64,000 bases of DNA from Candidatus Poribacteria bacterium (GTDB lineage: Bacteria > Poribacteria > WGA-4E > PCPOR2b). The position numbers and the translations under genes are program-made. The first letter of the stretch is position 1. Each line of letters opens with the position of its first letter. Positions 6,004-51,485 of the stretch are shown piece after piece. Below the pieces are notes generated by a model. The model did not search any database. It saw nothing but the letters and a program-made list of their open reading frames with translations, and was not told where the DNA came from. The DNA is taken from assembly GCA_965207095.1 (NCBI GenBank), contig CBDBMC010000001.1, forward strand, positions 74,357-138,356, given 5' to 3'.

Positions 6004-6294
6004 AGATTTTCTCCCCTGAAGCTGGAAACGTATATGGGACACTGGTATCTTGATGGTCATACCACCTACCCTATCTGGCTTGTGCCTCGCTGCCTCACCT
6101 GCTGACTTTCATTATCCCTACACGCCTAAGCTTTAGTAAGGACGACATGTGTATAAAGCACCAACCCAATGAACCAATAAACTAACAAAGTCCAGTAGGG
6201 TAATATGTAGTAGCTTCCCTTAATATAGGCTACTATAGGCAGTGTATCAGACTATAAACGGCGTGTCAAGTATGCCCTAGATGTTTTCTATCCT

Positions 6295-8247: not shown

Positions 8248-8497
8248 TTAGAGCCTGTTTTAAAAGTGAAACGGTCATCTTTAGGAAGTTCACATGTCGC
8301 CCCGCTGGGGCTTAGGTTGTTTGTTTGTCCCGTATTCTATAAACATGTCGCCCCGCTGGGGCTAAGAATCTGTTTTAAGAGTACGTGAAACGGTCATCTT
8401 TTGCCATTCTAGAGACACAATCAACCGATTTTGAGAGTATTTACCCGTAAACTGACAACTTTCAGAGATTATTTGGATTTTTCAAACAGGTTCTTAA
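8248..8497. repeat. Composite REP-bearing element, family A; REP copies at 8294-8312 and 8344-8363
   Basis: Same architecture as the copy at 1-230. Confidence 0.85.
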
Positions 8498-11992: not shown

Positions 11993-12970
11993 ATGTAACT
12001 CTTGATTGTTAATATAACGCAAGTTGCTAGATGTTTATTTAATGATGAGTGTAATCATAGTGGCAATGAGAAACAAAACCACTTTAATCTCAAATCCAGC
12101 GGCAGTCACTGCATGAATAGAACGATGGTAGCCGTTGGGTGCATTAGACCGTTTGTCACCTCCACCCGCTTGCGATACTGATGGTGTAGGTAAACTTGCC
12201 ATCGGTTTATATTGACGCTTACTGTTTTTCTTACGCAACGGTTTGAGCATAATACCGGCTTGGGACAAAGCAGTCCTCAGAATCCCATAATTACAATAGG
12301 CTCTATCTGCATGAACAACCGCTCCCTGAGGCAAATCAAACGGATAACACCGCAACCCCATCACATCACCAAAACTGCCCGGTGTTAAGAAAAACTCAAC
12401 CGGCACACCACGCTCAGTGACCATCAGATGCAGTTTGAGTCCATAGAAGTATCTACGTTTACTGGTTATCTTACCGCGCCACTCTTTACCTTGATACAGT
12501 TTTGCACTAGAGATACGAATTGGGTCACATGCTGGAACGGGATACGAGTCAATAGCATAGATTTGATGTGAGTTTTGTGCTTTACAGTTAGCGGCTATAG
12601 ATTCAAAAAGTATCTGAAACATCGGTGCAATTTGATGGAGTCTGCGGTTGAATCGTGCTTTACTGAGCATATTGGGAATATATCCCTGTTCTTTGAGTAG
12701 GTGTCGTGCCAGCTGTTGATTGCCACCGAACAGTTCTGCTGCCACTAAGGCGGTGGTCATTACTTCTGCGGCAGACATTTTGGTTCGTGGGTCATCTTGA
12801 TATCCGTGTTGAATTAACAGATCGTCACAAAGTGTATAAAATGCTACGATGACTAAGTCCATGGGATTCTCCTGTTTATGAGGTTTGTTGTCGCTAACAA
12901 ATACTCTAACGGAAATTCCATGGATATTCAAATAGCAACTTGCGTTAATATAATGGACGACAGCATCCAA
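11993..12970. mobile_element. IS982-family insertion sequence with about 21-bp imperfect terminal inverted repeats (TTAATATAACGCAAGTTGCTA)
   Basis: Left TIR 12009-12029, right TIR 12933-12953 in inverted orientation; single DDE transposase ORF inside; inserted into the RAYT gene. Confidence 0.75.
12035..12862 (-). CDS. IS982-family DDE transposase
   Basis: 275 aa from ATG 12862; N-terminus MDLVIVAFYTLCDDLL... is the typical IS982 start (ΦΦCxVDDF motif). Confidence 0.75.
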   Translation of the reverse strand: MDLVIVAFYTLCDDLLIQHGYQDDPRTKMSAAEVMTTALVAAELFGGNQQLARHLLKEQGYIPNMLSKARFNRRLHQIAPMFQILFESIAANCKAQNSHQIYAIDSYPVPACDPIRISSAKLYQGKEWRGKITSKRRYFYGLKLHLMVTERGVPVEFFLTPGSFGDVMGLRCYPFDLPQGAVVHADRAYCNYGILRTALSQAGIMLKPLRKKNSKRQYKPMASLPTPSVSQAGGGDKRSNAPNGYHRSIHAVTAAGFEIKVVLFLIATMITLIIK

Positions 12971-13297
12971 CTGAGAATGTACATACGAGAACGCTGCAGT
13001 AAGCCTCCCTGCCATTCAAATCTACCGACAACCGCATCCCTTTCTGTTAATCCATTTTGACGAATTTGTTTTGATATCTCTCACCAAGTCAGAAATCGCA
13101 ATGTCGGGTGTGATACCTACAAGGATATGAAGGTGATCTGGCATTGAATTAATCCGAATTACTGTCTGCTTTTTATGGGTGATAATGCGGGTAACATATT
13201 GGTGAAGTGCCTCTTTGTGCTGTTTGGGAATGAGGGATTGCCTGCCTTTGACAGCAAAAATAATGTGTATGTAAAGTTGGGTATAGGTATCAGCCAT
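12958..13297 (-). pseudogene. REP-associated tyrosine transposase (RAYT / IS200-like Y1 TnpA), frameshifted and truncated by the IS982 insertion
   Basis: MADTYTQLYIHIIFAVKGRQ...MPDHLHILVGI...SSKWINRK then a +1 shift into ...GRFEWQGG (RAYT KFEWQEGYGAFS motif) which runs into the IS982 TIR; REP doublet immediately 5-prime. Confidence 0.7.
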
Positions 13298-13315
13298 GAC
13301 TTTTGTGTGGGTCAC

Positions 13316-13385
13316 CTGTCGCCCCGCTGGGGCTTGGGAGATTTTGTTATCCCGTGTGCTCAATAAACATATCGCCCCGCTGGGG
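13316..13385. repeat. REP doublet (GTCGCCCCGCTGGGGC x2, 34-nt spacer ending AATAAAC) abutting the RAYT 5-prime end
   Basis: Copies at about 13316-13333 and 13367-13385. Confidence 0.85.
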
Positions 13386-13604
13386 CTATGTTGGTTCATT
13401 AGTCCATCAGTTTATTGGTGCAATTAATGAACCTTTGAGGCTACAGCATATTAATTTGAATCCCAAGCATCGGGATGGCGTATGCCTATCACTAACACCT
13501 TGGTTTCTATAGATTCGTGCTCATTCGTGCAGATTCACGGACGCCTTACGCCCTCTTCTTACCTGAACTTCCGTGACGTTGTTTCGTGCAGGATTGGTTC
13601 ACCT

Positions 13605-13672
13605 GTCGCCCCGCTGGGGCTTTCATTACTAGGGGATTTCACTTTTCTATAAACATGCCGCCCCGCTGGGGC
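13605..13672. repeat. REP doublet
   Basis: Copies at about 13605-13621 and 13655-13672, spacer ends CTATAAAC. Confidence 0.85.
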
Positions 13673-13847: not shown

Positions 13848-15572
13848 CTATTTTCTGTGCCCTGACCGCAATCTTTCGGTTTCCGTCTCGTCCACCGTCC
13901 AACTCTTCCGATCAATCACTACACGGTAGACCGCCCGCGCCCGCTCAAGGCTCACCTTCCCCTCATGCACATCCCGCAGCACCAACTGCGGATCCCGTTC
14001 CGCAGCGGGACCGTATCCACCACCCCCACACGACTGCACCCGCACCATATCCCCCGGCTTCAGTTGGACGGTAACTTTTGAGCCAAGCTTGGTCGCTTCA
14101 GCGTCGGGGTTGAGTGTGTAACGCGCAATCTCTCCGTCCTCGCCGCCGAAAAGCCCCCAAGGTCCCCACTTGTCCCGATCCGCCAAGATAGTGAACGAAA
14201 CCTCATGGTCAAAGCAATAATCCCGCTGCAACCCAAGCCCACCGCGATATTTTCCTGCGCCGTCCGAATCATCGACCAACTCGTAACGGGCGATGTGTAC
14301 CGGGTAATTGATCTCCGTCTCTTCAATGGGTGCGTTCTCGGTGTTCTGCCCGTGACACTGCACCGCATCGGGTCCATCGCTGGCAACGCGCCCACCGTAT
14401 CCGCCAGCCATCGTCTCGTAATAGGCGTACAGCTCACCCGTGCGCGGCGAGGTGCCCCCGAACCCCATCTGGCACATCATCGCTTTTGTTCCGGCTGGAA
14501 TGCGGTCAGGGATGGCGGGCGCAAGCGCTTTGAGCAGGACATCGTTCAGCCGAATCTGCGTCTCCCAGCCACCGACGACAGGGAATGGCGGGGCGCAGTT
14601 GACCACTGTGCCTAGCGGTGCATCTATCTGAACCAACCGGTAGAAACCCGCGTTGACAGGTATATCGGGGTCGATCAGGCTTTTTAGGACATAGGCGCAG
14701 GCGGAAAAGGTCTGGGCATAGGTGGAGTTGACGGGTGCCCGCCGTTGGGGTTCGGAACCGTTCAGATCGAAAAGTACACCATCGTCATTGATGACTAATT
14801 TCCCCACAAGGTGCACCGGCTCATCGGTGTAGCCGTCGTTGTCGACATAGCCGTCGGCGGTGAAGACCCCTTGGGGCAGCTTGGCAATTTCTGCGCGTGT
14901 CCGACGCTCTGTATAGGCGAGCAGTTGGTCGATATAGAAGCTAACCGTTTCGGCTCCCATCCGATCGAGCAGCGCGGTCAACCGGCGCACCCCGGTATTG
15001 TTGGAAGCGACCTGCGCTCGAAAGTCGCCCGCGGTCTCGTGTTTGGATCGGATCTGTGCCAACACAAGCCGAAAAACGTCCGGATCAATCTCCCCGCCCT
15101 CCACCATCTTCACGGCAGAGATGATGACCCCCTCCTGAAAAACCTCACGGAACGCCCCGATACTCGCGGGCGCACCGCCGCCTACGTCCACATGGTGCGC
15201 GAGGTTAGCGACATAGCCGAAAAGTTCGTCCTTGTAATATACGGGTGATATAAGGGTGATGTCGTTGAGGTGGACGCCGCCGAGATAGGGATCGTTGGAG
15301 AGAATCGCGTCGCCGGGACCTAAGTTCTCCGGTCCGTATTCCCGGATAACCCGCGGGACAGACTGAGAGAGAGAGCCGAGATGTACTGGCTGCGTGAATG
15401 ACTGCGCGACAGGCTGCAATTCCCTGTCGAAGAAGGCGCACGAGAAATCGGCGCGGGTCTTGATGTTGGTCGAATAGGCGCTACGGCGGAGTGCGATGGT
15501 CATCTCCTCCGTAGCCTCGATCAGCGCATTACGGATAACTTCAAACTTGATTGGATCGAATGTTGGGCTCAT
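13848..15572 (-). CDS. Hydantoinase B / oxoprolinase-family protein (HyuB-like), paralog 1
   Basis: 574 aa; DPIKFEVIRNALIEATEEMTIALRRSAYSTNIKTRADFSCAFFD...HLGSL matches PF02538. Confidence 0.85.
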   Translation of the reverse strand: MSPTFDPIKFEVIRNALIEATEEMTIALRRSAYSTNIKTRADFSCAFFDRELQPVAQSFTQPVHLGSLSQSVPRVIREYGPENLGPGDAILSNDPYLGGVHLNDITLISPVYYKDELFGYVANLAHHVDVGGGAPASIGAFREVFQEGVIISAVKMVEGGEIDPDVFRLVLAQIRSKHETAGDFRAQVASNNTGVRRLTALLDRMGAETVSFYIDQLLAYTERRTRAEIAKLPQGVFTADGYVDNDGYTDEPVHLVGKLVINDDGVLFDLNGSEPQRRAPVNSTYAQTFSACAYVLKSLIDPDIPVNAGFYRLVQIDAPLGTVVNCAPPFPVVGGWETQIRLNDVLLKALAPAIPDRIPAGTKAMMCQMGFGGTSPRTGELYAYYETMAGGYGGRVASDGPDAVQCHGQNTENAPIEETEINYPVHIARYELVDDSDGAGKYRGGLGLQRDYCFDHEVSFTILADRDKWGPWGLFGGEDGEIARYTLNPDAEATKLGSKVTVQLKPGDMVRVQSCGGGGYGPAAERDPQLVLRDVHEGKVSLERARAVYRVVIDRKSWTVDETETERLRSGHRK

Positions 15573-15595
15573 AATTTCTCTTAACCAAAATTGCT

Positions 15596-15880
15596 AATGT
15601 AGCGCAAACTGTTAGTTTGCGAGATGGATCACAATCTAACAGATTATGCTACAAAAGATCGTTCTCAGGGGATAATTTCTTGAAAACGAGCCTCCCCGAT
15701 GAAAAACGAGTTGAGTTTCACTTTATCTGTCCATAAGCAGGTGGTGTTGGACGGCCGAGCCTCTGCTGGACTTGATAGGGATTTACGTTTAACCGTTCAA
15801 CCCAACCTACGAACTGTTAGTTTGCGATATGGATCACAATCTAACAGGTTGTGGTACAAAAGATCACTGTTATCTTCTTA
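15596..15880. repeat. Two about 65-bp direct repeats (15596-15665, 15812-15880) with nested palindromes GCAAACTGTTAGTTTGC / CTGTTAG..CTAACAG in the 5-prime leader of hyuB paralog 1
   Basis: Seen directly; about 90% identical copies 216 bp apart. Confidence 0.6.
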
Positions 15881-16215
15881 AAGACTTCTCTGATGAAAAA
15901 CTAAGTGCGGTGTCGAGATATGAATCTCGACCTACACACAACAGACCGACAATTACCCCGGTGGTTTAGAACAGATGGAACGGAGATCTCCGTTCCCTAC
16001 GAATGGCTCGGTTCTGTGGACCGGTAGAGGTTTTCATAGTGAACAGCGATCGTTGTTCACTACAACTACCGCAAAATGTCAACACGCTCTAGGTATTGAA
16101 AATCTATCAGTCTTCTCGTAGGGGCGAGCTCTCCTCGCCCATCAACTCCTTCCCTTTCTCCCTAGAGGAACGCGATGTAATAGAGTCTACCAGTTCAATG
16201 AACCAATGAACCAAT

Positions 16216-16701
16216 TCATTCTACTCGGCGAAACGCCAACCGCTCACCGACAAATCCCTCACGCCAGATGCTGGTACACGCCTCCGCCATTTCTTCAAGG
16301 TTTTCCGTAACCTCAGCGAATCGGTTACCGGGGACGGGTCCCATCGTGGGTGAGAAGATTAAATTGTCCCGTCCGTAGAAGATCGCAAGGTCTACCATGC
16401 CCGTGTCGTAGGCAACCTCTCGCACCGATGGAAGGGTAATGGTGCCGGGCGGAAAGTAGAAGTAGAGCAGGTCGCCGGGGATTGGCATAATTGTCGGATT
16501 TTCGAGACCGATTTCGCTCGGTGCGAAAGGTGGGACCAGACAATAAACTTCGTTGCTCGCGTATTTGGCATGAAAGGCATCGTTTTCCTGGGGCAGTGCA
16601 TTCCATACCGCCTCGCACGTCTTCGGTGCCAGGTCGTCAAGCATCCGCGCAACACAACTGACGCCACGTTTTCTAAGGGTCACTTCAATATATCGATCCA
16701 T
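16216..16701 (-). CDS. Hypothetical protein, possibly DUF3830/cyclophilin-like fold
   Basis: 161 aa from MDRYIEVTL; weak family recall only. Confidence 0.4.
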   Translation of the reverse strand: MDRYIEVTLRKRGVSCVARMLDDLAPKTCEAVWNALPQENDAFHAKYASNEVYCLVPPFAPSEIGLENPTIMPIPGDLLYFYFPPGTITLPSVREVAYDTGMVDLAIFYGRDNLIFSPTMGPVPGNRFAEVTENLEEMAEACTSIWREGFVGERLAFRRVE

Positions 16702-16853
16702 TTTAGTCTCCTTGAATTTATATGTTGGTTCATTAGGCTCTGTTGACATTTCATTGTAACCAGTCAATCAAGAGGGTGTGCAGCCGTATGATTCGCCGTA
16801 GGGGTTGGGTCTCCCAACCCTTTGTTCACACGTCAGAGACGATTTCCGGCTTG

Positions 16854-16911
16854 CTGTAGGTCGATTTTCCAAAATCGACGTTTCAGCGTCGAGATGTGAA
16901 TCTCGACCTAT
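16854..16911. repeat. Hairpin element family E (CTGTAGG..GTCGAGATGTGAATCTCGAC..)
   Basis: Related copies at 15908-15935 and 48023-48082. Confidence 0.6.
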
Positions 16912-17059
16912 GCCGTTCCGAGCATCCCGATGAATCGGGACAATCTACAATCAATTCAACCTGTACGGTTTAGGGGATCTAACCCGTATTGTTCAATGGG
17001 CGAGGGAACCTCGCCCCTACGATTACGGATACATCTCATATAAATGTCAACACGCCCTA

Positions 17060-17290
17060 GTACACTGTCAGGCAAGTTTTGTAATTATTATATATTAGGA
17101 CTTACGCCGCTGAAGGGTCAAAGCCCTGTAGTTCGGCGATTTATCGCCGCATCACACTCTTTCCAACGCCCGATGAATCCCCGATTGATCGGGACAGGCG
17201 GGCAACTACAGGCTAAAGTGCGTAAATCCTGTATATGTTACCGTTTGCTTTCAATCAATATACACAACCATAATTTGCCTGACAGTGTAC
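17060..17290. mobile_element. MITE with 16-bp TIRs GTACACTGTCAGGCAA / TTGCCTGACAGTGTAC, flanked by TAG/CTAG
   Basis: Related copies at 21901-22065 and 50718-50949 sharing the right 60 bp; the ORF-track ORF 17044-17301 is an artefact of this element. Confidence 0.75.
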
Positions 17291-17326
17291 CAGTTCATTA
17301 GTTCAAGAGTTCATTAATAAACCAAC

Positions 17327-17370
17327 TTACGCATCACGTTTTACGCATCACGTTTCACGCATCACGTTCC
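17327..17370. repeat. Three tandem 13-mers ACGCATCACGTTT overlapping the 3-prime end of the racemase gene
   Basis: The same ACGCATCACGTT unit occurs at gene 3-prime ends at 32262, 51525, 58520 and 62975. Confidence 0.6.
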
Positions 17371-18086
17371 ACCGCCATCAGTCGTCCTAAATTGGACTGT
17401 GGCGTTAAGTGGTTTGTGAGGCGCAAAGCTTCCCACATCGTCACCTGATTCGCCGTTAGCACCGTTTTGCCAACCGCCGTTTCAAGTTCGGGCAGAAAAT
17501 CGACGGTGTGCAACGCGGTGTCGGGGATAAGCACCGCCTCAGCGTCGGAATGGTCGTTGGCACACGCAAAGCGTAACACCTCGTCGCGTTCAATCAGCGC
17601 GACCTCATCACCGGTCCAGACGCCGAGACATCCCATGTGAACGACCTCAACGCCACCTGTCTCCAGAAAAGAGCGAAAGGCGTTTGACAGTTCTTCAGGG
17701 TAAGTTGCAGCGACAGCAACGCGTTTCAGTCCGAGTGCTTGGCAAGCAGTGAGAAACGCCAACGATGTACTCGATGCCGGTACACCGAGCGCATCGACCA
17801 GATCCTGTGCTTGACGCTGCGCTCCTTCTACACCAAACGCAAAACTCGCACTGGTGCACGCCCATAAACAGACGGCGACGTTGTGAGGACGCAGCTCATC
17901 CGCACCCGCCAACAGGTATTCCCGACTGCCAGTGACAAGGCTCTCGTCGATCCGATGCAGGTTTGGGCTATCGGTATGCACCACCTGAACCTCGACCGGG
18001 GGCTGCAACGCAGCAGCGAGGCGTGGATAGTCGTCCTCCGCGGAGTAAAGGGGGTAGAGGATGCCAATTTTTAGCTTGTTTTCCAT
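17355..18086 (-). CDS. Asp/Glu/hydantoin racemase-family protein (arylmalonate decarboxylase / maleate isomerase-like)
   Basis: 243 aa; IGILYPL...TSASF...KRVAVAATYPEE...GGVEVVHMGCLG two-half Cys-containing fold pattern. Confidence 0.65.
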   Translation of the reverse strand: MENKLKIGILYPLYSAEDDYPRLAAALQPPVEVQVVHTDSPNLHRIDESLVTGSREYLLAGADELRPHNVAVCLWACTSASFAFGVEGAQRQAQDLVDALGVPASSTSLAFLTACQALGLKRVAVAATYPEELSNAFRSFLETGGVEVVHMGCLGVWTGDEVALIERDEVLRFACANDHSDAEAVLIPDTALHTVDFLPELETAVGKTVLTANQVTMWEALRLTNHLTPQSNLGRLMAVERDA

Positions 18087-18131
18087 CTGGTTGTCTCAGT
18101 CAAAGTTAATTATGGTAGATTTTAGAATTAC

Positions 18132-18385
18132 TTAGAGCCTGTTTTAAAAGTGAAACGGTCATCTTTAGGAAGTTGTTCACATGTCGCCCCTCTGGGGCTT
18201 AGGTTGTTTATTTGTCCTGTATTCTATAAACATGTCGCCCCGCTGGGGCTAAGCATCTGTTTTAAGAGTAGATGAAACGGTCATCTTTTGCCATTCTAGG
18301 GGCACAATCAACCGATTTTGAGAGTATTTACCCGTAAAATGACAACTTTCAGAGATTATCCCGATTTATCGGGACAGGTTCTTAG
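18132..18385. repeat. Composite REP-bearing element, family A; REP copies 18181-18200 (variant GCCCCTCTGGGGC) and 18232-18250
   Basis: As other family A copies. Confidence 0.85.
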
Positions 18386-18492
18386 ACATTCCCAACGCAC
18401 AGGTAACCCCCTAAATCGCCCTTTTCAGGGGGACTTTACAAACTGCGGAGCTATTGTAAATATCTACTTATTTCTCTAACTTACCATAAACC

Positions 18493-19338
18493 CTATTCCT
18501 TCCAACCGACCGCCGTAACAGTGGCGTGTGCCATAAAAGCTCCTGGCTGCTCGCCCCATTTTTGCCAAGCGGCGATTATCCGTTGCAGTTCAGAACGATC
18601 TGTCCAACCCAGCCCAATCATCTGCTGCGCTATATGAGATTCACTAAACATCCGTACCCCGTGTTCCGCACGCATTTGTATAGCGTCTTGCGTAGCCACG
18701 GTTGAATACTTTGCAATCGGCTCAACACGAACAAATCCGGCACTGTGAAGCAAACCGCGCTGATGTTTACCGATGGCGGGATCCCCTCCGTTATGTTCAA
18801 CCAACCGCCAGTAAAGCTCATGACCGCGATCCAGCAACGGATCCGAAGGACTGATGAGTGAGCCGCTAAAGTCGGGATGGCTGATACCAATCACACCGCC
18901 GGGACGCAAAAGTCGGTATATTCCCTTGAGAATCTCAAGGGGCTGCCGAAGGTGACTCAACACATTGTGCAGAAACACTGCATCAAATGAGCTATCAGCA
19001 AAAGGGAGACGATAGACATCGGCGCACCCAAAGTGGAGGCTAATTCCTCCACGTTTAGCCGCCTGCAGCCATGCAGACCTATATTCGCTGGGTTCGATAT
19101 CAACCCCCACGACCCGTCCGGGCGCGACAGCCTCCGCCAACCCAACGGTAATACTACCGGGTCCACAACCGCAGTCCAACAGGCGCATACCGGCGCTCAG
19201 ATGAGGTAGGAGAAACCCCGCTTCTTTCGCTGCGGTGCGTCTCTGAAGCTGCTGGATAGTTTGGGGCGAATACCCTAACGTATATCGTTCTTTCGGCTCC
19301 GTACCGCTCGCGGATTCTTGTGATTTGGCCTTTGCCAT
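18493..19338 (-). CDS. Class I SAM-dependent methyltransferase
   Basis: 281 aa; LDCGCGPGSITVGLAEA motif I, acidic motif II VVGVDIE, FDAVFLHNVL. Confidence 0.8.
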   Translation of the reverse strand: MAKAKSQESASGTEPKERYTLGYSPQTIQQLQRRTAAKEAGFLLPHLSAGMRLLDCGCGPGSITVGLAEAVAPGRVVGVDIEPSEYRSAWLQAAKRGGISLHFGCADVYRLPFADSSFDAVFLHNVLSHLRQPLEILKGIYRLLRPGGVIGISHPDFSGSLISPSDPLLDRGHELYWRLVEHNGGDPAIGKHQRGLLHSAGFVRVEPIAKYSTVATQDAIQMRAEHGVRMFSESHIAQQMIGLGWTDRSELQRIIAAWQKWGEQPGAFMAHATVTAVGWKE

Positions 19339-19351
19339 GTGTCTCTTCCCG

Positions 19352-20092
19352 CTATTGGTCCTTCAAATAGTCGTAGACAATCTGTGCGTATCCCTCGGAG
19401 TAGCTGCTCTCCATGTAGAAGGCATCGCCATATTTCAGCGGCGATAGCGGAGTGAGATCACACAACGGGGAAGCGCCGAGGATAATCCTGCCCTGCCCCT
19501 TCGCGGTGAAATGCACCTCTAGATCTTGGGCCGTTTCGGTGCAATCGATTAACTGTTTGATGGCAGGACCCGGACCATCCGCTCGCGGGATAACCTTCAA
19601 CCGCCACGCAGGGGTTAAGGCGGGCATCGCATTGTGGGAAACAACAGTTTCCATGCTGGAACTGATATTTAGCACCGGCACACCGCCGAGCGTGGTCTCC
19701 GTAACCATGCACCGATCCGCTTGCGTCACCTTTAACCCCGCGTACACCTTCGGTGTTCCGTAAATTTCTCTGCCCGCAGCGATACCAGCAGGGCCGTCAT
19801 GAAAGACATGGGAACAGTAAAATCCGGTCTGATCCCTGAAACGGCACTTCATCACAATAAAAGATTCTTGGAAGGGACCATAGTTTGTGCAGAAGGGCAC
19901 CTCTAAGCCCGAAGCCACGCACAGTCCGTCCTCTGCGGCTTCCAGAGGTTCGGGGAGAAAGGCTTGGACGGCGGTGGGATCGGCCTGAAAAAAAACAAAC
20001 TGAAACCGCACATTCCGATAGACCGCTGGCAGCGACGGATAAAAGGGGTTGTCCGCGGGTATATTCCAGCCGTCATCGTGTTTAAGTCCCAT
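19352..20092 (-). CDS. Acetoacetate decarboxylase (ADC)-family protein
   Basis: 246 aa from MGLKHDD; LPEPLE..., GIAAGREIYGTPKVYAG (Lys-containing active-site segment) and C-terminal AQIVYDYLK closely match Adc; start overlaps upstream hyuB paralog by 11 nt. Confidence 0.8.
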   Translation of the reverse strand: MGLKHDDGWNIPADNPFYPSLPAVYRNVRFQFVFFQADPTAVQAFLPEPLEAAEDGLCVASGLEVPFCTNYGPFQESFIVMKCRFRDQTGFYCSHVFHDGPAGIAAGREIYGTPKVYAGLKVTQADRCMVTETTLGGVPVLNISSSMETVVSHNAMPALTPAWRLKVIPRADGPGPAIKQLIDCTETAQDLEVHFTAKGQGRIILGASPLCDLTPLSPLKYGDAFYMESSYSEGYAQIVYDYLKDQ

Positions 20093-21839
20093 GATCAGAA
20101 TCCTCTCCTGCACCGGCGCGCAGCTTCGCAGTCTCCGCTTCATCCACTGTCCATGACTGAGTATCTACCGCAACTTTATAAATCTCTCGCGCCCGTCCAA
20201 GGCTCACCTTGCCCTCGCGCACGTCGCGGCATACCATAGCCGGATCGCGTTCTTCGGGGCGCCCGTAACCGCCACCGCCGCATGTGCGGTAGCTCATGAT
20301 TTCCCCCGGCTTGAGTTGGACGGTCACTTTGGAACTGAGTTCGACAGGATCTGTGTCGGGATTCAGGATGTAGCTTGCCTTGAGACCCGGTTGCCCACCG
20401 AACAGTCCCCACGGTCCCCACCGATCCCGATCTGCCAAGATAGTGAAGGACGGTTCATGGTCGAGAAATTCGTAATCGCGTCGTAGGCCTAGTCCACCGC
20501 GATGCTTGCCCGCACCATCGGAATCATCGACCAGCTCGTAGCGCGTGATCCGCACCGGGTAGTTCGTTTCAGTCTCCTCAATAGGCGCATTCTCGGTGTT
20601 CTGTCCGTGTGTCTGCACGGCGTCGGGACCGTCGCTGGCGATCCGCCCGCCAAATCCACCCGCCATCGTCTCCAAGAAGCAGTAATACTCCCCTGTACGC
20701 GGGTCTGCTCCACCAAAACCGGCGTGGCACATCATGGCTTTCGTACCCGCTGGCACCCGCTCTGGCATCACCGGCGATAGCGCCTTGAACATCACGTCGA
20801 TCAGCCGGGTCTGTGTCTCCCATCCGCCCACGACTGGCGCAGGCGGCAGGCTATTGACCACCAATCCTTCAGGAGCGAGCATCCGCACAAATCCGTAAAA
20901 TCCTGCGTTTGTCGGTATGTCGGGATCGATTAAACACTTGAGGACGTACGCACAGCCGGAGAAGGTCTGGGCATACGTGGAGTTCACCGGTGCTCGCCGT
21001 TGCGGGTCACAGCCGGTGAGATCAAAGAACATACCGTCCTCGTCAACCACCATCTTCGCGACAAGGTGTACCGGTTCATCGGTAAAGCCGTCGGTATCAA
21101 CATAACCGTCGGCGGTGAAGACACCGTGCGGCAGCTTAGCGACCTCTGCCCGGGTCCGCCGCTCTGCATAAGCGATTAGTTCGTCGATGTAGAAAGTAAA
21201 GGTTTCTGCCCCCATCCTATCCATAATCGCGCTTAACCGGCGCATCCCGGTGGTATTCGCCGCCACCTGTGCCCGAAAGTCGCCGCCCGTTTCGCGCTTC
21301 GATCGAATCTGCGATAGCACCAACCGAAAGATGTCGGCCCGCATCTCTCCCCCATGCACCAACTTCACAGGCGGGATGATGACCCCTTCTTGGTAGACCT
21401 CCCGGAACGCGCCGACACTCGCCGGTGCACCGCCACCTACATCGACATGATGGGCGACATTAGCGACATAGCCGAACGGTTCGTCGTTGTAGTAGACAGG
21501 CGTAATCAGGGTGATGTCGTTCAGATGCCCGCCGCCTCCATACGGGTCGTTGACCAAAAGTGTATCGCCCGGTCCGATGTTTTCAGCCCCGTAGTCGCTG
21601 ATAGCCTTCGGGACCAATTCAACCAACGATCCTAAGTGGGTGGGTTGACCGAAGGATTGCACCACCAACCGCAGCTGGCGATCGAAAAATGCACAGGAAA
21701 AGTCCGCACGGGTCTTGATGTTGGTCGAATACGCGCTACGGCGCAGGGCGATAGTCATTTCCTCGGTTGCTTCTAACAACGCATTGCGGATAACTTCAAA
21801 TGTGATTGGATCAACTCGGTCCGGGTTTTGCACTGACAT
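20082..21839 (-). CDS. Hydantoinase B / oxoprolinase-family protein (HyuB-like), paralog 2
   Basis: 585 aa; about 70% identical to paralog 1 by eye. Confidence 0.85.
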   Translation of the reverse strand: MSVQNPDRVDPITFEVIRNALLEATEEMTIALRRSAYSTNIKTRADFSCAFFDRQLRLVVQSFGQPTHLGSLVELVPKAISDYGAENIGPGDTLLVNDPYGGGGHLNDITLITPVYYNDEPFGYVANVAHHVDVGGGAPASVGAFREVYQEGVIIPPVKLVHGGEMRADIFRLVLSQIRSKRETGGDFRAQVAANTTGMRRLSAIMDRMGAETFTFYIDELIAYAERRTRAEVAKLPHGVFTADGYVDTDGFTDEPVHLVAKMVVDEDGMFFDLTGCDPQRRAPVNSTYAQTFSGCAYVLKCLIDPDIPTNAGFYGFVRMLAPEGLVVNSLPPAPVVGGWETQTRLIDVMFKALSPVMPERVPAGTKAMMCHAGFGGADPRTGEYYCFLETMAGGFGGRIASDGPDAVQTHGQNTENAPIEETETNYPVRITRYELVDDSDGAGKHRGGLGLRRDYEFLDHEPSFTILADRDRWGPWGLFGGQPGLKASYILNPDTDPVELSSKVTVQLKPGEIMSYRTCGGGGYGRPEERDPAMVCRDVREGKVSLGRAREIYKVAVDTQSWTVDEAETAKLRAGAGEDSDHGT

Positions 21840-21900
21840 TTCCTCCTACAATCTCGACAAGAACAATTAAGGCGCCCTTTTAACCTAATACAAGTTGCTA

Positions 21901-22065
21901 GTACACTGTCATTTTAGTTTTGGAATTATGACAACACACATTGCGCTCCGCTGGAGCGCAGGGATTGACCGCAGCGACGTTCTATAGACATATCGCTCCA
22001 CTGGAGCGAAAGTTATCGTTTGCTTTCAATCTATATACACAAGCATAATTTACCTGACAGTGTAC
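21901..22065. mobile_element. MITE (GTACACTGTCA... TIR family) carrying a second REP variant doublet GCGCTCCGCTGGAGCGC at 21943-22008
   Basis: TIRs as at 17060/17290; interior replaced by a REP2-type doublet with CTATAGACATATC spacer end; preceded by an IS982-TIR-like CAAGTTGCTAG. Confidence 0.7.
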
Positions 22066-22321
22066 TAGTTGACAAACCTGTAAGTCAAAATTCATGTCTC
22101 GACAACTGCTTATGCCATGATCACAGGTTAGGCAACCTGTGTCTACAAAAGACGGTGATCCTAAAGCAGTAACCTTTGGTGCTAGCTTAGTGAGATTTTT
22201 TTTACATTGTTCAAGTCGCTTTGGATCCCCCCGATAAACCGGGGTAAACTAATTATCGGGGAGTTCATGGGTTCATTAGTCGGTTGGTTGATTTATTCTT
22301 ATGTTCCCCCTTCGGATACAC

Positions 22322-22391
22322 ATGTCGCCCCGCTGGGGCTTGGCTGTATGTGTGATATCCATATTCTATAAACATGTCGCCCCGCTGGGGC
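22322..22391. repeat. REP doublet
   Basis: GTCGCCCCGCTGGGGC at 22322-22340 and 22373-22391. Confidence 0.85.
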
Positions 22392-22554: not shown

Positions 22555-23682
22555 TTATGCAAAGCGGGTGGCAGAGAGCGGTCCGGGATCTCGCCCATCC
22601 AACGCGAGCGCCACCATACGCTCGGCAGCGACAAGCCCAATTGAATTGCCGTATCCACTAAATCCGACAGCAAACACGACAGCTGCCTCGTCCGGGAAAG
22701 CCCCAACAGCCACACGGCGATCCGGCGTAAATCCGTGAATGCCGGCCCACTGGCGTTCCACCTGAAACTCAACGCCCGGAAACCATAGCCTCAGATAGTT
22801 CACGAGGTTGACATGTAAGTCCGGCGTTACAGCGTCTTCGGCGGTGTACTCCTGTGCTTCAAAGAAGGCACGCGCTCCTCCGATGAACAGGCGTCCATCC
22901 GGGAATTGTCGAAAGTAATGGTTCTCGGTGATACCCGCAACGTTGATCAAAGGTTCAACCGGTGTCGTTACCGTTATCTGGCCCCGCACGGGCCGCACGA
23001 TCCCGCGCAGATATGGGTGTAGATCACAGCCATAGCCGTTGGTAGCAACATAGACCTTACGACACTGAATATGTGCTCGGCGTCCGCGAACAAGGAGGCA
23101 TTCACCCACCGGCTCAATGGCGTAGACCTCGTTGTGGTCGTAGAGGGTGGCGTCAGCGGATGCGGCAATGGCTTCCGTCAATCGTGCAGGCTGCACCATG
23201 AAGTCGTTTTCGACCTGCATGGTCGCAATGTAACCGGATGACCCGTAGGGATCAGTGTACGAAAAGTCTACCGCAGCACCGTCGGCTTCCAGTTCGCGAG
23301 CCCAGTGCTCCAACTCACGGGCTTCGGCATGGGTCTCCGCGAGATGGGCAGCACCCTCCTCAAGCGGGACGGCAAAATGGTTCGCCAACGAGCGCATTTG
23401 GAGCACGTTTTCGCGCACCATGGTCAGGATCTCGCGGGCGGCTTCCCGTCCCACCTGCTCGATAAGTACTGGATACGGCTCGCGTTGTCCCGTTAAGACA
23501 AATCCAGCATTTCGACCTGACGCCCCAGCAGCCGGGAAACGCGCATCTACGAGCGCGACGTCGCGTCCCCGTTCACGCAGCAGGGTCGCAGTATAAGCGC
23601 CCACGATCCCGGCACCGATAACGACATCATCATGTTCGGCCTGAATGGGTTCAGCTGCTTCCTGCCACACGGATACGGTCAT
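22555..23682 (-). CDS. FAD-dependent oxidoreductase (DAO/glycine-D-amino-acid oxidase family)
   Basis: 375 aa; DDVVIGAGIVGAYTATLL...GRNAGFV N-terminal FAD-binding fold. Confidence 0.8.
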   Translation of the reverse strand: MTVSVWQEAAEPIQAEHDDVVIGAGIVGAYTATLLRERGRDVALVDARFPAAGASGRNAGFVLTGQREPYPVLIEQVGREAAREILTMVRENVLQMRSLANHFAVPLEEGAAHLAETHAEARELEHWARELEADGAAVDFSYTDPYGSSGYIATMQVENDFMVQPARLTEAIAASADATLYDHNEVYAIEPVGECLLVRGRRAHIQCRKVYVATNGYGCDLHPYLRGIVRPVRGQITVTTPVEPLINVAGITENHYFRQFPDGRLFIGGARAFFEAQEYTAEDAVTPDLHVNLVNYLRLWFPGVEFQVERQWAGIHGFTPDRRVAVGAFPDEAAVVFAVGFSGYGNSIGLVAAERMVALALDGRDPGPLSATRFA

Positions 23683-26208: not shown

Positions 26209-28038
26209 ATGAAAAAACAGGTTTTGCGTTTTAGTTTGTTCCTTATGATGTGCCTTTCAGTCCCATTAACAGGAGCAGCACAAATAGATATCTCAGTCGT
26301 TCCCAGCTCAAATACGCCTGCGGTAGGTGATGAAGTTGAACTTTCCATTAACGCTGGAGGGTCTAATGTCGCTGGCTATGATTTCAGACTCACCTTTAGC
26401 CCAACCGGACTGGAATTTATAGATATTGCAGATGCGAACTACCTTGGTGACGATGAACACAAACTCCCCTCTAGCCCGACTGAACTGGAGTCTGTAAGTG
26501 ATCCAGACTCCCCCGTGTCAGATGTATATACGATATTTCCTGTAGTTGGGGACGGTTCAGTGAGATTTGCTGCGTTCGCTCTGACGGGTACGGGAGAGGG
26601 TGATGGGACTCTCGCCGTAGCGCGTTTTAAGGTATTAGCCGAAACAGAAACGACGGTCGGACTTGAGCGTGTTGTGATTGGGAGTCGGTCGGTACAGGAA
26701 ATTGCAATCGGTTCGATTGCTGGGGCGACCATTACCCCAACCGCTGCCACGACAGGTAACGTAGAATTCCGCCTGCCGATACCAGCGGGCATCGGTCTGA
26801 TTCATGTCCCCCTGAAGGTGAACGCGGTTAACGGAGTCGCGCGGACGATCACTTCTATCTCCGATCTCTACGACATACTCGGTGGACAAAGCAATGTCAT
26901 CTACCTGTTCACCCGTGACTCCCAAACTCAGCAATGGATTGGTTATCTCAAACCCTCGGACAGAGGCACCGCTGTCGACAGACAGTTGACGGATGATATG
27001 GGGATTATCACCAATTTGATAACCCCGACACCGCTTCGTCTGCGCGGTAGCAGCCTGGGGACAAATGGAAACAGCATCATCACCTTAAACCCCGGTATCA
27101 ACCTTGTGGGAGTGCCGTTGAGAGATTCAAGAATAACAGATGTGAGTGATCTGTTTGCCCTTGAAGGGATTGAAGACAACGTCCTTGTGATTACGGCCCA
27201 AGATAACAACGGGAATGTCAAACCAATTAACCCCACAAGCGCTGCAGATATAGAAATCACCGGGGGACAATCCTTTATCATGGCCGCCTTGCGAAAGGAC
27301 ACAGTTGTTATCGCCGGTGATGCATGGGCTAATCTCCCAGAAGCGGGCGGCGCGCCACCGATAATCAGGAGAGGCATCAAAGTGGATGATGTGACACCTA
27401 TTTTGGCGTTGAGAGGTTCGATTGCTGACCAAGGAAGGAAATTGACCAAGACAAGCTTCCGCGTCATTGTAAAGAATCGCTCAACCGGCAGAAGGGTCAC
27501 CGCTGTAACAGGAGGTGAGTACAACTCTCATTCGGATCCGTGGGGATTAGATGGGGTAGGCTATCAACTCGCCGATGTGGATTTACAGACAGGCCGAGCG
27601 GCTATGATTGGAGATATTCTTGAAGTCTCTGCTCAATCCTCAAATCCGTTAATTGGTGTGGAGCCGTTGCAATACACAGTAACCGCTGAAGATGTAAGGC
27701 AGGGCTGGATTCAGTTGTCAGCGTTACGCGCCTATGAAATACCGGCGGAAACAGCACTGCTACACAACTATCCCAACCCGTTTAATCCGGAAACGTGGAT
27801 TCCGTATCAACTCGCTCATGCTGCTGATGTGACGCTTACCATTTATGACACCAAAGGCATGATGGTCCGCCAATTAGATTTAGGGTATCAGCAGGCAGGA
27901 TATTACACAGATAGGACGCGAGCGGCATATTGGGATGGACGCAACCACTTAGGCGAGGCGGTGGGGAGCGGTATCTATTTCTATCAGCTACGTGCAGGAG
28001 ATTATTCCACCACGCGAAAGATGGTGATTTTAAAATAA
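26209..28038 (+). CDS. Secreted T9SS cargo protein: signal peptide, cohesin/Big-like N-domain, module shared with 277-6003, T9SS C-terminal sorting domain
   Basis: 609 aa; MKKQVLRFSLFLMMCLSVPLTGAAQ signal; about 300-aa module about 75% identical to residues about 1500-1830 of the giant protein; NYPNPFNPETWIPY..KMVILK tail. Confidence 0.8.
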   Translation: MKKQVLRFSLFLMMCLSVPLTGAAQIDISVVPSSNTPAVGDEVELSINAGGSNVAGYDFRLTFSPTGLEFIDIADANYLGDDEHKLPSSPTELESVSDPDSPVSDVYTIFPVVGDGSVRFAAFALTGTGEGDGTLAVARFKVLAETETTVGLERVVIGSRSVQEIAIGSIAGATITPTAATTGNVEFRLPIPAGIGLIHVPLKVNAVNGVARTITSISDLYDILGGQSNVIYLFTRDSQTQQWIGYLKPSDRGTAVDRQLTDDMGIITNLITPTPLRLRGSSLGTNGNSIITLNPGINLVGVPLRDSRITDVSDLFALEGIEDNVLVITAQDNNGNVKPINPTSAADIEITGGQSFIMAALRKDTVVIAGDAWANLPEAGGAPPIIRRGIKVDDVTPILALRGSIADQGRKLTKTSFRVIVKNRSTGRRVTAVTGGEYNSHSDPWGLDGVGYQLADVDLQTGRAAMIGDILEVSAQSSNPLIGVEPLQYTVTAEDVRQGWIQLSALRAYEIPAETALLHNYPNPFNPETWIPYQLAHAADVTLTIYDTKGMMVRQLDLGYQQAGYYTDRTRAAYWDGRNHLGEAVGSGIYFYQLRAGDYSTTRKMVILK

Positions 28039-28073
28039 CTTACTTTTGACCTAACCTTAGGGAGGCAAAATTC

Positions 28074-29849
28074 ATGGATAGATACCCTCTTCATCACTTT
28101 GCGAGGCATACCCTGTGGGGATTAATTCTACTCTTCCTCTTTTGTACAAGTTTCAACCTGAGCCTTGCCACAGGGATCGGTTCTGTATTGAGTCTCGATG
28201 GCGACGGCGACGAAGTCCGTGTTGAAGACGCACCGTCCTTAGTTATCACCAATGAACTAACCATCGAGGCGTGGATTTACCCGTTAGGAGAGGGTTCAGG
28301 TTGGGCTCACACCGGAAGAGAGGGAGGAATTATCGTCAATAAGGAGGGCGAATATGAACTTGGGCGATTTGAGGACGGTAGCATTCGATTCGCTGTTAGC
28401 AATAGGGATCCAGGTTGGAATTGGATTAATACCGAATATGTCGTTCCCGAGGGCACATGGGCCCATCTCGCATTCACCTATTCAGTGCACACACAAATCT
28501 TCCAATTGTTTGCCAATGGGGTACTGGTGTTTTCAAGCCGCGGCATAGGGGAAATTGGGGATATTTATGAGACGCATAATTACTTCAAGATAGGCGCGCG
28601 CCGTGAAGAGGCTCGGAATTTTTTCGATGGGAGGATTGACGAAGTTCGGCTCTGGGACTTTGTCCGCACGGAAGCCGACATCCAAGCCACAATGGACACC
28701 TCGCTTCAGGGAGATGAGGCGGGCCTGGTCGGTTACTGGAACTTCGATGATGGGACAGCCAACGACCGATCCGACCATGGGAATCACGGCATCTTAGTCG
28801 GCAATGCAGAGATCATTGGGAATCTGCCACGACTCTTCTTCTCCACAACCGATCCGATAAACGTACATGATACATTCACACTCGATCTCACGGCCGAAGG
28901 GTTTACCAATTTTGCCGGTTGGGAACTCGATATTGCCTTCGATCCCGCTATTCTCAACGTCATTTCCGTCAGTGAAGGGGATTTTCTTTTAAAGGACGGT
29001 GGACAAACCTTCTTTCAAGCGGGTAACGTCAACAATAGTGTTGGCGAAATTACCGGCTTCGCAGCGGTACACATCGGCGTAGGTGGCGTCAGCGGAACTG
29101 GGCCCCTCCTATCCATAATCTTTGAAGGAAAGGCACTCGGAGAGGGAAATTTAAGGTTACACGACGTGAGGATGGGGGATGCGAGCGGAGCCCCAATTTC
29201 CTTCAGGTTTGCCAGCAGGCTAATTATCGTAGGCAACTCGTGGGATGTCAATAAGGATGGACATATAAACATCTTTGATTTAATTGTAGTCGCCCAGAAC
29301 TTTGGTCAATCCGACCCGCAAGCCGATGTCAACGGGAGTGGAATAGTTGATATCTTCGATCTCGTTGAGGTCGCTCGACGTTTGGGCGAATCTACAGTCG
29401 GCTTAGCTCCCGGCGTAGGAATGAGGCATCTTTCGGGAATCAATTCCGAGACAATTCAGAATTGGATAGATATGGCGCATACAGCAGATGATGGCTCACT
29501 TGCCTTTCAGGAAGGCATCATTAACCTTGAACACCTGTTAGCGGCAATACGCCCAGACCAAACTGCCCTACTTGCGAACTATCCTAATCCGTTCAATCCA
29601 GAGACATGGATACCGTATCAACTCGCCCACGCTGTGGACGTAACATTTACCATCTATGACACTCAAGGCACGCTGGTCCGTCAATTCGATTTAGGACATC
29701 AGCAGGTGGGATATTACACCGATAGGACACGAGCCGCATACTGGGATGGACGCAACCACTTCGGTGAGTCAGTGGGGAGTGGTATCTATTTCTACCAGCT
29801 ACGTGCAGGCGATTATTCCACCACGCGAAAGATGGTCATACTAAAATAG
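28074..29849 (+). CDS. Secreted LamG (concanavalin-like) - cohesin - dockerin - T9SS C-terminal-domain protein
   Basis: 591 aa; LamG_3-like RIDEVRLWD segment, cohesin-like FTLDLTAEGFTNFAGWELDIAFDP, duplicated dockerin Ca-binding repeats DVNKDGHINIFDL / DVNGSGIVDIFDL, tail about 92% identical to that of 26209-28038. Confidence 0.8.
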   Translation: MDRYPLHHFARHTLWGLILLFLFCTSFNLSLATGIGSVLSLDGDGDEVRVEDAPSLVITNELTIEAWIYPLGEGSGWAHTGREGGIIVNKEGEYELGRFEDGSIRFAVSNRDPGWNWINTEYVVPEGTWAHLAFTYSVHTQIFQLFANGVLVFSSRGIGEIGDIYETHNYFKIGARREEARNFFDGRIDEVRLWDFVRTEADIQATMDTSLQGDEAGLVGYWNFDDGTANDRSDHGNHGILVGNAEIIGNLPRLFFSTTDPINVHDTFTLDLTAEGFTNFAGWELDIAFDPAILNVISVSEGDFLLKDGGQTFFQAGNVNNSVGEITGFAAVHIGVGGVSGTGPLLSIIFEGKALGEGNLRLHDVRMGDASGAPISFRFASRLIIVGNSWDVNKDGHINIFDLIVVAQNFGQSDPQADVNGSGIVDIFDLVEVARRLGESTVGLAPGVGMRHLSGINSETIQNWIDMAHTADDGSLAFQEGIINLEHLLAAIRPDQTALLANYPNPFNPETWIPYQLAHAVDVTFTIYDTQGTLVRQFDLGHQQVGYYTDRTRAAYWDGRNHFGESVGSGIYFYQLRAGDYSTTRKMVILK

Positions 29850-51232: not shown

Positions 51233-51485
51233 TAAGAGCCTGTTTTAAAAGTAAAACGGTCATCCTTAGAAAGGTGTTCACATGTCGCCCCGCTGGGGCT
51301 TGGGTTGTTTGTTTATCCTGATTCTATAAACATGTCGCCCCGCTGGGGCTAAGAGTCTGTTTTAAGAGTAGGTGAAACGGTCATCTTTTGCCATTCTAGG
51401 AGCACAATCAGCCGATTTTGAGAGTATTTGCCCGTAAAATGAGAACTTTCAGAGATTATCCCGATTCATCGGGACAGGCTCTAAT
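51233..51485. repeat. Composite REP-bearing element, family A; REP copies 51292-51310 and 51342-51360
   Basis: As other family A copies. Confidence 0.85.

Follow-up and report, generated by a model that had tools for sequence, protein, structure and literature searches.

A Poribacteria gene cluster with two hydantoinase-B paralogues interleaved with ADC-, AMDase- and DUF3830-family genes: probable metal subunits of a split lactam/hydantoin hydrolase

A total of seven clustered genes, all on the minus strand, were detected by Pfam analysis between positions 13848 and 23682 of a 64,000-nt stretch of DNA from the sponge symbiont Candidatus Poribacteria bacterium (GCA_965207095.1, contig CBDBMC010000001.1, positions 74,357 to 138,356), which as a whole is called the window here. 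Two of them encode paralogues of the hydantoinase-B/oxoprolinase beta subunit, HyuB1 and HyuB2, which share 75% identity. Between them lie genes for an acetoacetate decarboxylase (ADC)-superfamily protein, an S-adenosylmethionine (SAM)-dependent methyltransferase, a racemase-superfamily protein resembling arylmalonate decarboxylase (AMDase) and EutA, and a DUF3830 protein; a DAO-family oxidoreductase gene completes the cluster (Table 1). An earlier interpretation made from the letters and open reading frames (ORFs) of this stretch (the sequence-only reading) had named the same gene types on one strand, and the domain matches bear it out, with PF02538 covering both HyuBs over their full length. 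The 11-nt overlap of HyuB2 and the ADC gene and the peptides LPEPLE and AQIVYDYLK of the ADC-like protein, which that reading had also reported, are all present: the ADC gene begins with the ATG at 20092, and HyuB2 ends with its stop codon at 20084–20082. This ATG, giving a protein of 246 aa, is most likely the true start instead of that of the ORF 19352–20143. Likewise, the most probable start of the DUF3830 gene is not that of the ORF 16216–16767 but the ATG at 16701 (161 aa), which has a ribosome-binding-site-like AAGGAG upstream. Scans for promoters and terminators in the cluster performed no better than on shuffled sequence. The window is collinear with a 94%-identical locus (L001), where the flanking genes encode aldo-keto reductase, NAD-kinase-like, UxuA-like and adenylate kinase proteins.

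Table 1. Genes of the cluster and repeat elements beside and between them, with positions in the window
Feature	Position	Strand	Size and evidence
DAO-family FAD-dependent amine/amino-acid oxidoreductase	22555–23682	-	375 aa; Pfam DAO, 144 bits
HyuB2, hydantoinase-B/oxoprolinase beta (metal) subunit paralogue	20082–21839	-	585 aa; PF02538, 586.9 bits, profile 1–519/519
ADC-superfamily (beta-cone) Schiff-base enzyme (putative)	19352–20092	-	246 aa; Pfam ADC, 118 bits
Class I SAM-dependent methyltransferase, variable accessory gene	18493–19338	-	281 aa; Pfam Methyltransf_11/31/25
AMDase/EutA-like protein, Asp/Glu-racemase superfamily	17355–18086	-	243 aa; Pfam Amdase, 82 bits
DUF3830 cyclophilin-like protein	16216–16701	-	161 aa; Pfam DUF3830 (PF12903), 178 bits, profile 1–143/143
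HyuB1, second hydantoinase-B/oxoprolinase beta paralogue	13848–15572	-	574 aa; PF02538, 583.5 bits, profile 1–518/519
Spacer between DAO and HyuB2 genes: miniature inverted-repeat transposable element (MITE)-like element with terminal inverted repeats (21898–22068) and repetitive extragenic palindrome (REP)-like doublet (22320–22391)	21898–22391		repeat scan
REP-like doublet between methyltransferase and AMDase-like genes	18179–18249		repeat scan
MITE-like element with 25-nt terminal inverted repeats, between AMDase-like and DUF3830 genes	17057–17293		related to 21898–22068
REP-like doublet	13601–13672		repeat scan

Alignment of HyuB1 with CapB, the beta subunit of the Pseudomonas jessenii caprolactamase CapAB (PDB 6YRA), placed D42, H101, D104 and H126 on CapB D41, H99, D102 and H124, and the HyuB2 tetrad D46/H105/D108/H130 was assigned by motif and spacing and through the alignment of HyuB1. 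This tetrad of Asp-His-Asp-His was defined in CapB, and its mutation abolishes caprolactamase activity (PMC8453981). Compared with solved structures, the two proteins scored 320–325 bits with a fused N-methylhydantoinase (PDB 7hk5; HyuB2, 325) and 226–240 bits with CapB over its full length (HyuB2, 240), in contrast to 98–104 bits with acetophenone carboxylase and 46–59 bits with the alpha subunit of acetone carboxylase. The sequence-only reading had looked towards the carboxylases, and in the ranking obtained here N-methylhydantoinase stands above caprolactamase, and both stand far above the carboxylases. NCBIfam held no equivalog for the HyuBs of the window, which reached 295–306 bits against the CapB equivalog cut-off of 1000 and 94–113 bits against the ApcD cut-off of 1500. 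By these comparisons the HyuBs are placed in the hydrolase branch of the superfamily and not among the acetone or acetophenone carboxylases, and, because the CapB score is far under the equivalog cut-off, they are not predicted to be caprolactamase orthologues.

The carboxylases Apc and Acx belong to the same superfamily and have a HyuB-homologous metal subunit. In Apc, paralogous subunits are combined in one complex, but the duplicated subunit is the HyuA-like ATP-binding one (alpha, alpha') and not the HyuB-like one, and acetophenone carboxylase was therefore rejected as a precedent for two HyuBs with one HyuA (PMC8453981). Moreover, in the RADFS motif of both HyuBs an Asp occupies the position of the gating Glu of Acx (Glu89 of XaAc-alpha), and no homologue of the small gamma subunit was identified.

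The closest relatives of HyuB2 are 93–95% identical, and the named relatives at 74–78% identity include metagenome-assembled genomes (MAGs) of Candidatus Poribacteria; a plasmid search of cultured relatives returned HyuB2 homologues of at most 46% identity. The HyuBs of Poribacteria, Latescibacteria, Chloroflexi and an 8-Mb genome (L061, L062, L063, L002 and the window) are mutually 72–79% identical in a star-like pattern, and the matching HyuAs are 74–89% identical across phyla. Such high cross-phylum identity may be read either as unusual conservation or as lateral transfer.

HyuA usually adjoins the B subunit or is fused to it in this family. In the window, no Hydantoinase_A domain was detected by Pfam among the large ORFs, and tblastn with three HyuA proteins gave a best E of 0.4, with no remnant of the gene. 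A 699-aa ORF at 43281–45380 (-), equal in length to HyuA, was considered as a candidate and rejected, as it has just a glutaredoxin domain match and no tblastn match to HyuA. The gene is likewise absent within 10 kb in 19 related Poribacteria loci. In a sister Poribacteria lineage (L002 and L053, ~85% identical), the cluster runs HyuB2-ADC-DAO-AMDase-DUF3830-HyuB1 and is directly followed by a 699-aa HyuA and a GFO_IDH_MocA gene. A search with this HyuA, together with the member lists of 90%-identity protein clusters, revealed full-length HyuAs on contigs with the lengths of four chromosomes (6,255,843, 6,153,685, 6,785,377 and 5,943,281 bp) that carry the window-like clusters L004, L009, L008 and L042; the representatives of these HyuA clusters are 87–88% identical to the HyuA of L002. 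On the 6,153,685-bp chromosome, the hyuA locus (220,701–242,800) and the window-like cluster locus (2,864,045–2,884,782) are ~2.6 Mb apart, and the distant hyuA is intact, being 87% identical to the cluster-linked HyuA and retaining DIGGTFTD, DMGGT and GADPGP. These three ATP-binding motifs were defined for CapA, and the caprolactamase has its ATP site in CapA and none in CapB (PMC8453981). The sequence-only statement that the window has no HyuA partner for the HyuBs holds, but in relatives the enzyme does not lack one. Collinearity of the window with the 94%-identical L001 makes it very likely that hyuA is encoded elsewhere in the source genome, as it is in the relatives. Around the relocated gene in L057–L060 (e.g., L060:5505–14227), the order is ValRS, DAO, a 122-aa protein, PhyH, PhyH and HyuA, and next comes a transporter of BCCT (betaine) or MFS type; NCBIfam gave no name for the PhyH proteins or the 122-aa protein of this locus.

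The seeming oddity of HyuB lacking HyuA is accounted for by relocation of the A gene together with the two-B, one-A make-up of this subfamily. A metagenome scan with HyuB2 gave 80 loci (L068–L147) at 58–74% identity, and 83 HyuB loci made up the mapping set. At least two HyuB genes were found in 47 of these loci and a contiguous HyuB-HyuB-HyuA (B-B-A) in 25, often within longer A-B-(DAO-MR_MLE)-B-B-A arrays; an 8.08-Mb genome (L063) likewise carries HyuB-HyuB-HyuA in one operon. Two B paralogues with one A are a normal, recurrent make-up of this subfamily, and both B genes are kept in all complete Poribacteria clusters. A neighbour-joining tree, which carries no bootstrap support, revealed that the first and second B of operons from soil lineages form separate sister clades and that the B pairs of Poribacteria, L063 and L068 apparently arose separately, which points to repeated duplication and retention of B. 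The super-operon HyuA-HyuB-DAO-MR_MLE-HyuB-HyuB-HyuA recurs (e.g., L085, L110 and L129), often near S15 (CocE/NonD), M20 and GntR genes, and the HyuB of its A-B unit falls into a separate, distant clade; no account of such a layout was found.

The HyuB-HyuB-HyuA operons of soil, other metagenomes and L063 resemble the Poribacteria cluster in belonging to one tight subfamily (64–79% identity), in having two Bs and one A, and in often lying near a DAO-family oxidase. They differ in being contiguous and in their companions, a different, secondary-amine-oxidase-like DAO, MR_MLE (enolase superfamily), S15 and M20 hydrolases and a GntR regulator, and none has ADC, AMDase-like or DUF3830 genes. The environmental DAO that accompanies HyuB-HyuA is similar to N-methyltryptophan and sarcosine oxidases, and in a contig from Chloroflexi a creatininase-family gene adjoins a HyuB of 75% identity. 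These companion genes suggest that amino-acid-derived lactams, hydantoins or cyclic peptides may be the substrates of the subfamily.

A comparable logic is found in the catabolism of agropinic acid, encoded by octopine-type Ti plasmids, in which the oxidase AgaE works with the hydantoinase-like proteins AgaF and AgaG: an enzyme of the HyuA/HyuB type opens the N-substituted pyroglutamate lactam, and a DAO-family oxidase cleaves the secondary amine. This system resembles the recurrent DAO-HyuB-HyuA linkage and is not known to include ADC, AMDase-like or DUF3830 genes. A literature search returned nothing joining agropinic acid and hydantoinase.

Among the accessory proteins, the ADC-like protein is the one coupled to HyuB2. 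Its AlphaFold2 model (pLDDT 88) superposes on the decarboxylase CvADC (PDB 3BGT) with a TM score of 0.84 at 25% sequence identity. The equivalents of Lys115 and Glu76 are invariant in 44 homologues and align to the FPKK and YSES motifs of CvADC. The equivalent of Glu61 is Ser and that of Lys116 is Val; the Arg29 position is also Val, with an Arg one residue later that is not conserved in the family. Arg29, Glu61 and Lys116 all have roles in true acetoacetate decarboxylases. The beta-cone fold (TM 0.77–0.84) and the Lys115 and Glu76 equivalents are shared with CvADC, CaADC (PDB 3BH2), Sbi00515, MppR and Swit_4259, whereas identity is only 25% to true ADCs and 15–20% to the non-decarboxylases Sbi00515, MppR and Swit_4259. 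The protein is best described as a putative lysine Schiff-base enzyme that does not qualify as a true acetoacetate decarboxylase (EC 4.1.1.4). The sequence-only reading had contrasted acetone carboxylases, HyuAB homologues that make acetoacetate, with an ADC working in the reverse direction, and this idea is not supported: the HyuBs score 46–104 bits with carboxylases versus 226–325 with hydrolases, and the ADC-like protein scores 93 bits with NCBIfam ADC (NF002614) versus a cut-off of 150.

The AMDase-like protein has no PF01177 match in Pfam. Aligned to AMDase 3ixl, it has an invariant Cys (WACTS) at the Gly74 position and an invariant Asp (PDTALHT) at the position of the catalytic Cys188. 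An assignment as arylmalonate decarboxylase was rejected because of both replacements and a score of 77 bits against a cut-off of 225. A two-thiol racemase or isomerase, such as hydantoin racemase or maleate isomerase, was rejected because just the first Cys is present, the second position being Asp. EutA was rejected because the score (TIGR02990, 99 bits) is under the cut-off of 318 and no cluster gene matches EutB, C, D or E. The protein is thus not a typical member of either group, AMDases or two-thiol racemases. The DUF3830 protein has a sole structural match, the uncharacterised structure 3KOP (E = 1.5e-50), and no paper mentioning DUF3830 was found in the literature search. The DAO of the window reached no NCBIfam cut-off, with pipecolate oxidase, MnmC and ThiO as the best matches, and it is not orthologous to the DAO beside HyuB-HyuA in environmental loci. 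Besides the window, 10 of the 20 complete clusters of Poribacteria and the truncated L016 and L018 have the methyltransferase gene, which is absent from others, such as the 94%-identical L001. It is 67–82% identical between loci whose neighbouring genes are 90–96% identical, and may be either fast-evolving or separately acquired.

Homologues on plasmids of cultured bacteria are distant. The best ADC homologue, among those of at most 34% identity, lies in Martelella beside a TetR regulator and a betaine-binding protein. The DUF3830 homologues (at most 36% identity) follow a dihydropyrimidinase gene in Azospirillum and are coupled to an FAD oxidoreductase in Caballeronia. These contexts are suggestive and do not identify the substrate.

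Scanning one genome per species with the window ADC protein and mapping the window proteins onto the hits gave 54 loci in Poribacteria, Latescibacterota, Gemmatimonadota, an unclassified 3.7–3.9 Mb lineage and Acidobacteriota, most of them sponge- or coral-associated MAGs as judged by isolate names. The complete set of DAO, HyuB2, ADC, AMDase-like, DUF3830 and HyuB1 genes was found in 20 related loci, and as a fragment in the truncated L016, all of them Poribacteria. The HyuB-ADC pairing therefore reaches beyond this contig, to 21 Poribacteria loci. The sequence-only reading had proposed to analyse co-occurrence of such pairs, and here the answer divides: ADC, the AMDase-like gene, DUF3830 and the other accessory genes of the window are absent from all 83 other HyuB loci. 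In 17 loci of phyla other than Poribacteria (Latescibacterota, Gemmatimonadota and symbiont genomes without classification), the ADC-AMDase-DUF3830 trio stands alone, HyuB being absent within 10 kb; sulfatase, HAD, PhyH, kinase-like and inositol-monophosphatase-like genes, named by reading representative sequences, lie there upstream and in divergent orientation. Two ORFs of 533 and 699 aa near an ADC-DUF3830 pair in L024 were considered as distant HyuB and HyuA and turned out to be Wzi-like and NAD synthase/CN_hydrolase proteins. In other Poribacteria (L031:5489–16013; L034, L035 and L037–L039), a 72–76%-identical ADC paralogue lies in a cluster with sulfatase, GFO_IDH_MocA, two PhyH, Kelch/NanM-like and DUF6772 genes, and ADCs of this subfamily may have an additional part in the catabolism of sulfated sugars or related compounds. 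In sum, the HyuB-ADC pairing is real, conserved and specific to Poribacteria, and the steadier partners of ADC are the AMDase-like and DUF3830 genes.

The interpretation we favour, with a probability of roughly 0.7, is that HyuB1 and HyuB2 are metal subunits of a split, ATP-dependent lactam/hydantoin hydrolase whose HyuA is supplied in trans, and that accessory enzymes of symbionts have become interleaved with their genes. Like CapAB, such an enzyme would be expected to perform ATP-dependent opening of a stable cyclic amide, with the metal tetrad in the B subunits and the three ATP-binding motifs in the HyuA of the relatives. Unlike CapAB, which has one beta subunit, the window has two diverged beta paralogues, its alpha gene is not adjacent, and unrelated enzymes are encoded between the two beta genes. 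Since the caprolactamase is an A-B-B-A tetramer with a B-B dimer core (PMC8453981), HyuB1 and HyuB2 probably form, by analogy, a heterodimeric core flanked by HyuA. The substrate is probably a host- or symbiont-derived N-heterocycle.

In the route proposed, HyuA would phosphorylate the cyclic amide with ATP, and the metal site of HyuB1/HyuB2 would then hydrolyse the ring so activated, yielding an amino or N-substituted acid. Oxidation of the amine by the DAO could give an imine or keto acid, and the ADC-like enzyme could act on the carbonyl by forming a Schiff base with its lysine, leading to decarboxylation or C-C cleavage/dehydration. The AMDase-like enzyme might set the stereochemistry by racemisation or remove a second carboxylate. 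As for the origin of the cluster, an independent trio may have come to sit between two HyuB genes in Poribacteria, with a DAO oxidase specific to the lineage, and in some cases a methyltransferase, joining the assemblage.

Several points weigh against this interpretation. The repeat insertions of 400–700 bp between the genes of the window could have broken co-transcription, and the cluster has no transporter or regulator that hints at a substrate. The distance of ~2.6 Mb relies on two records taken, because of their equal length, as the same chromosome with shared coordinates, and the hyuA of the source genome is deduced from relatives that are 92–95% identical across the cluster. The two B paralogues could be separate enzymes that share HyuA. 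Finally, the coupling of the hydrolase to the trio is drawn from gene order alone, and each occurs without the other elsewhere, the trio in the lone loci and HyuB in all 83 other loci.

The last point is the core of the main rival, which we consider unlikely: two unrelated modules may lie side by side, the trio (with the DAO and methyltransferase) having been inserted by rearrangement and acting on another substrate, and the HyuB2/ADC overlap being incidental. The sulfatase, HAD, PhyH and kinase neighbours of the 17 lone trios would fit such a separate role, as would the ADC paralogue in the sulfatase/GFO_IDH_MocA/PhyH/Kelch cluster and the record of 0 of 83 environmental HyuB loci for ADC, AMDase and DUF3830; Poribacteria genomes are also rich in repeats and transposases. 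Against it, the interleaving is kept in 20 of 20 complete related clusters and in two ~85%-identical lineages, persisting despite their different gene order (L002 versus the window), which argues that selection holds the set together. Loci of the window lineage retain the 11-nt overlap, and DUF3830 adjoins a gene for a cyclic amidohydrolase, the dihydropyrimidinase, on the unrelated Azospirillum plasmid.

A more ambitious version of the split-hydrolase interpretation would be a dedicated symbiont pathway, in which a heteromeric HyuA-HyuB1-HyuB2 opens a stable N-heterocycle of the host or its microbial community, the coupled ADC-fold enzyme takes the product, and the AMDase-like and DUF3830 proteins assist. 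We regard this as doubtful; candidate substrates would be 5-substituted hydantoins, N-substituted pyroglutamates or diketopiperazines that contain proline. Speculatively, the MR_MLE epimerase-like, S15 X-Pro-peptidase-like and M20 companions of the subfamily elsewhere would be compatible with a cyclic-dipeptide substrate. To our knowledge, no ring-opening enzyme is known for a proline-containing diketopiperazine. A literature search returned nothing on Poribacteria hydantoinase, on hydantoinase with acetoacetate decarboxylase, or on diketopiperazine with oxoprolinase.

It appears improbable that the cluster serves a creatinine/N-methylhydantoin route of the kind proposed for sponge symbionts generally, with HyuA/HyuB as N-methylhydantoinase and the DAO as sarcosine oxidase. 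The best solved match is annotated as N-methylhydantoinase, the JGI labels of relatives read N-methylhydantoinase A/B, and the creatininase-family gene of the Chloroflexi contig and the sarcosine-oxidase-like environmental DAO point the same way. However, the solved enzyme shares only modest identity with the HyuBs, and the label given by JGI is generic. The DAO of the window is unrelated to that of environmental loci and stays under the sarcosine-oxidase cut-offs, and no creatinine deaminase or N-carbamoylsarcosine amidase was found among the scanned ORFs of the window. In addition, N-methylhydantoin is achiral, which leaves the racemase-superfamily enzyme without a role, and the known pathway has no place for the ADC-like protein or DUF3830.

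Least probable by far is a HyuA-independent, HyuB-only system that forms, with an acetoacetate decarboxylase, a new carboxylation/decarboxylation cycle akin to that of acetone carboxylase: the missing hyuA in the window and within 10 kb in the 19 related loci, the translational coupling of HyuB2 and ADC and the bicarbonate requirement of caprolactamase, which makes carboxyl chemistry not foreign to the hydrolase branch (PMC8453981), are outweighed by the intact hyuA on the same chromosomes of relatives and adjacent in the sister lineage, the ATP site confined to the A subunit in solved homologues (PMC8453981), the far lower acetone carboxylase scores, the Asp at the Glu89 position and the deviations of the ADC-like protein from true ADCs. 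The sequence-only reading had hinted at an uncharacterised carboxylation/decarboxylation or ring-opening pathway; the former, without HyuA, is unsupported, and ring-opening stays plausible in the split-hydrolase interpretation.

The gaps in the cluster are filled with repeats, as the sequence-only reading had noted for MITEs; the repeat scan identified both MITE-like elements with terminal inverted repeats and REP-like doublets. The palindromic REP-like 20-mer GCCCCAGCGGGGCGACATGT has 20 copies in the window versus 0 expected; outside the gaps listed in Table 1, REP-like copies lie, for example, at 13314–13386, 24–94, 8292–8362, 51280–51349 and 57304–57374. A short IS200-type Y1 transposase ORF (Pfam Y1_Tnp) lies at 13022–13399 (-) among the GCCCCAGCGGGGCGACATGT doublets, which have a spacing of ~51 bp, and is adjoined by a DDE transposase (12035–13015). 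The doublets and the Y1 ORF look like a REP family with a transposase of the REP-associated tyrosine transposase (RAYT) type.

Elsewhere in the window, two adjacent secreted proteins with cohesin, dockerin, FlgD-Ig and Por_Secre_tail domains are encoded at 26209–29849 (+), and a 1927-aa ORF lies at 277–6060 (-); in relatives, LRR/cadherin/cohesin-dockerin giants occupy the corresponding place. Two overlapping genes at 32256–34230 (-) encode CoA_binding/Ligase_CoA and ATP-grasp_2 domains together with an ATP-citrate-lyase citrate-binding domain, and this pair could encode an ATP-citrate lyase-like or citryl-CoA synthetase-like enzyme.

For the family, the cluster shows that an orphan-looking HyuB is no evidence for HyuA-independent chemistry, as the A gene can sit megabases away. 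What is new is modest and does not overturn current knowledge, namely the Poribacteria-specific interleaving of such an enzyme with an uncharacterised trio found mostly in symbionts. If the dedicated-pathway proposal were true, it would provide a first function for DUF3830 and for this ADC subfamily. The strongly conserved HyuB-HyuB-HyuA operons and the longer A-B-DAO-MR_MLE-B-B-A arrays from soils also appear uncharacterised and offer a second candidate for study. The trio itself is small and well defined, and occurs mostly in genomes labelled as sponge or coral symbionts of several phyla (Poribacteria, Latescibacterota, Gemmatimonadota and the unclassified ~3.8 Mb lineage), which makes it a reasonable target for asking which host metabolites these symbionts consume.

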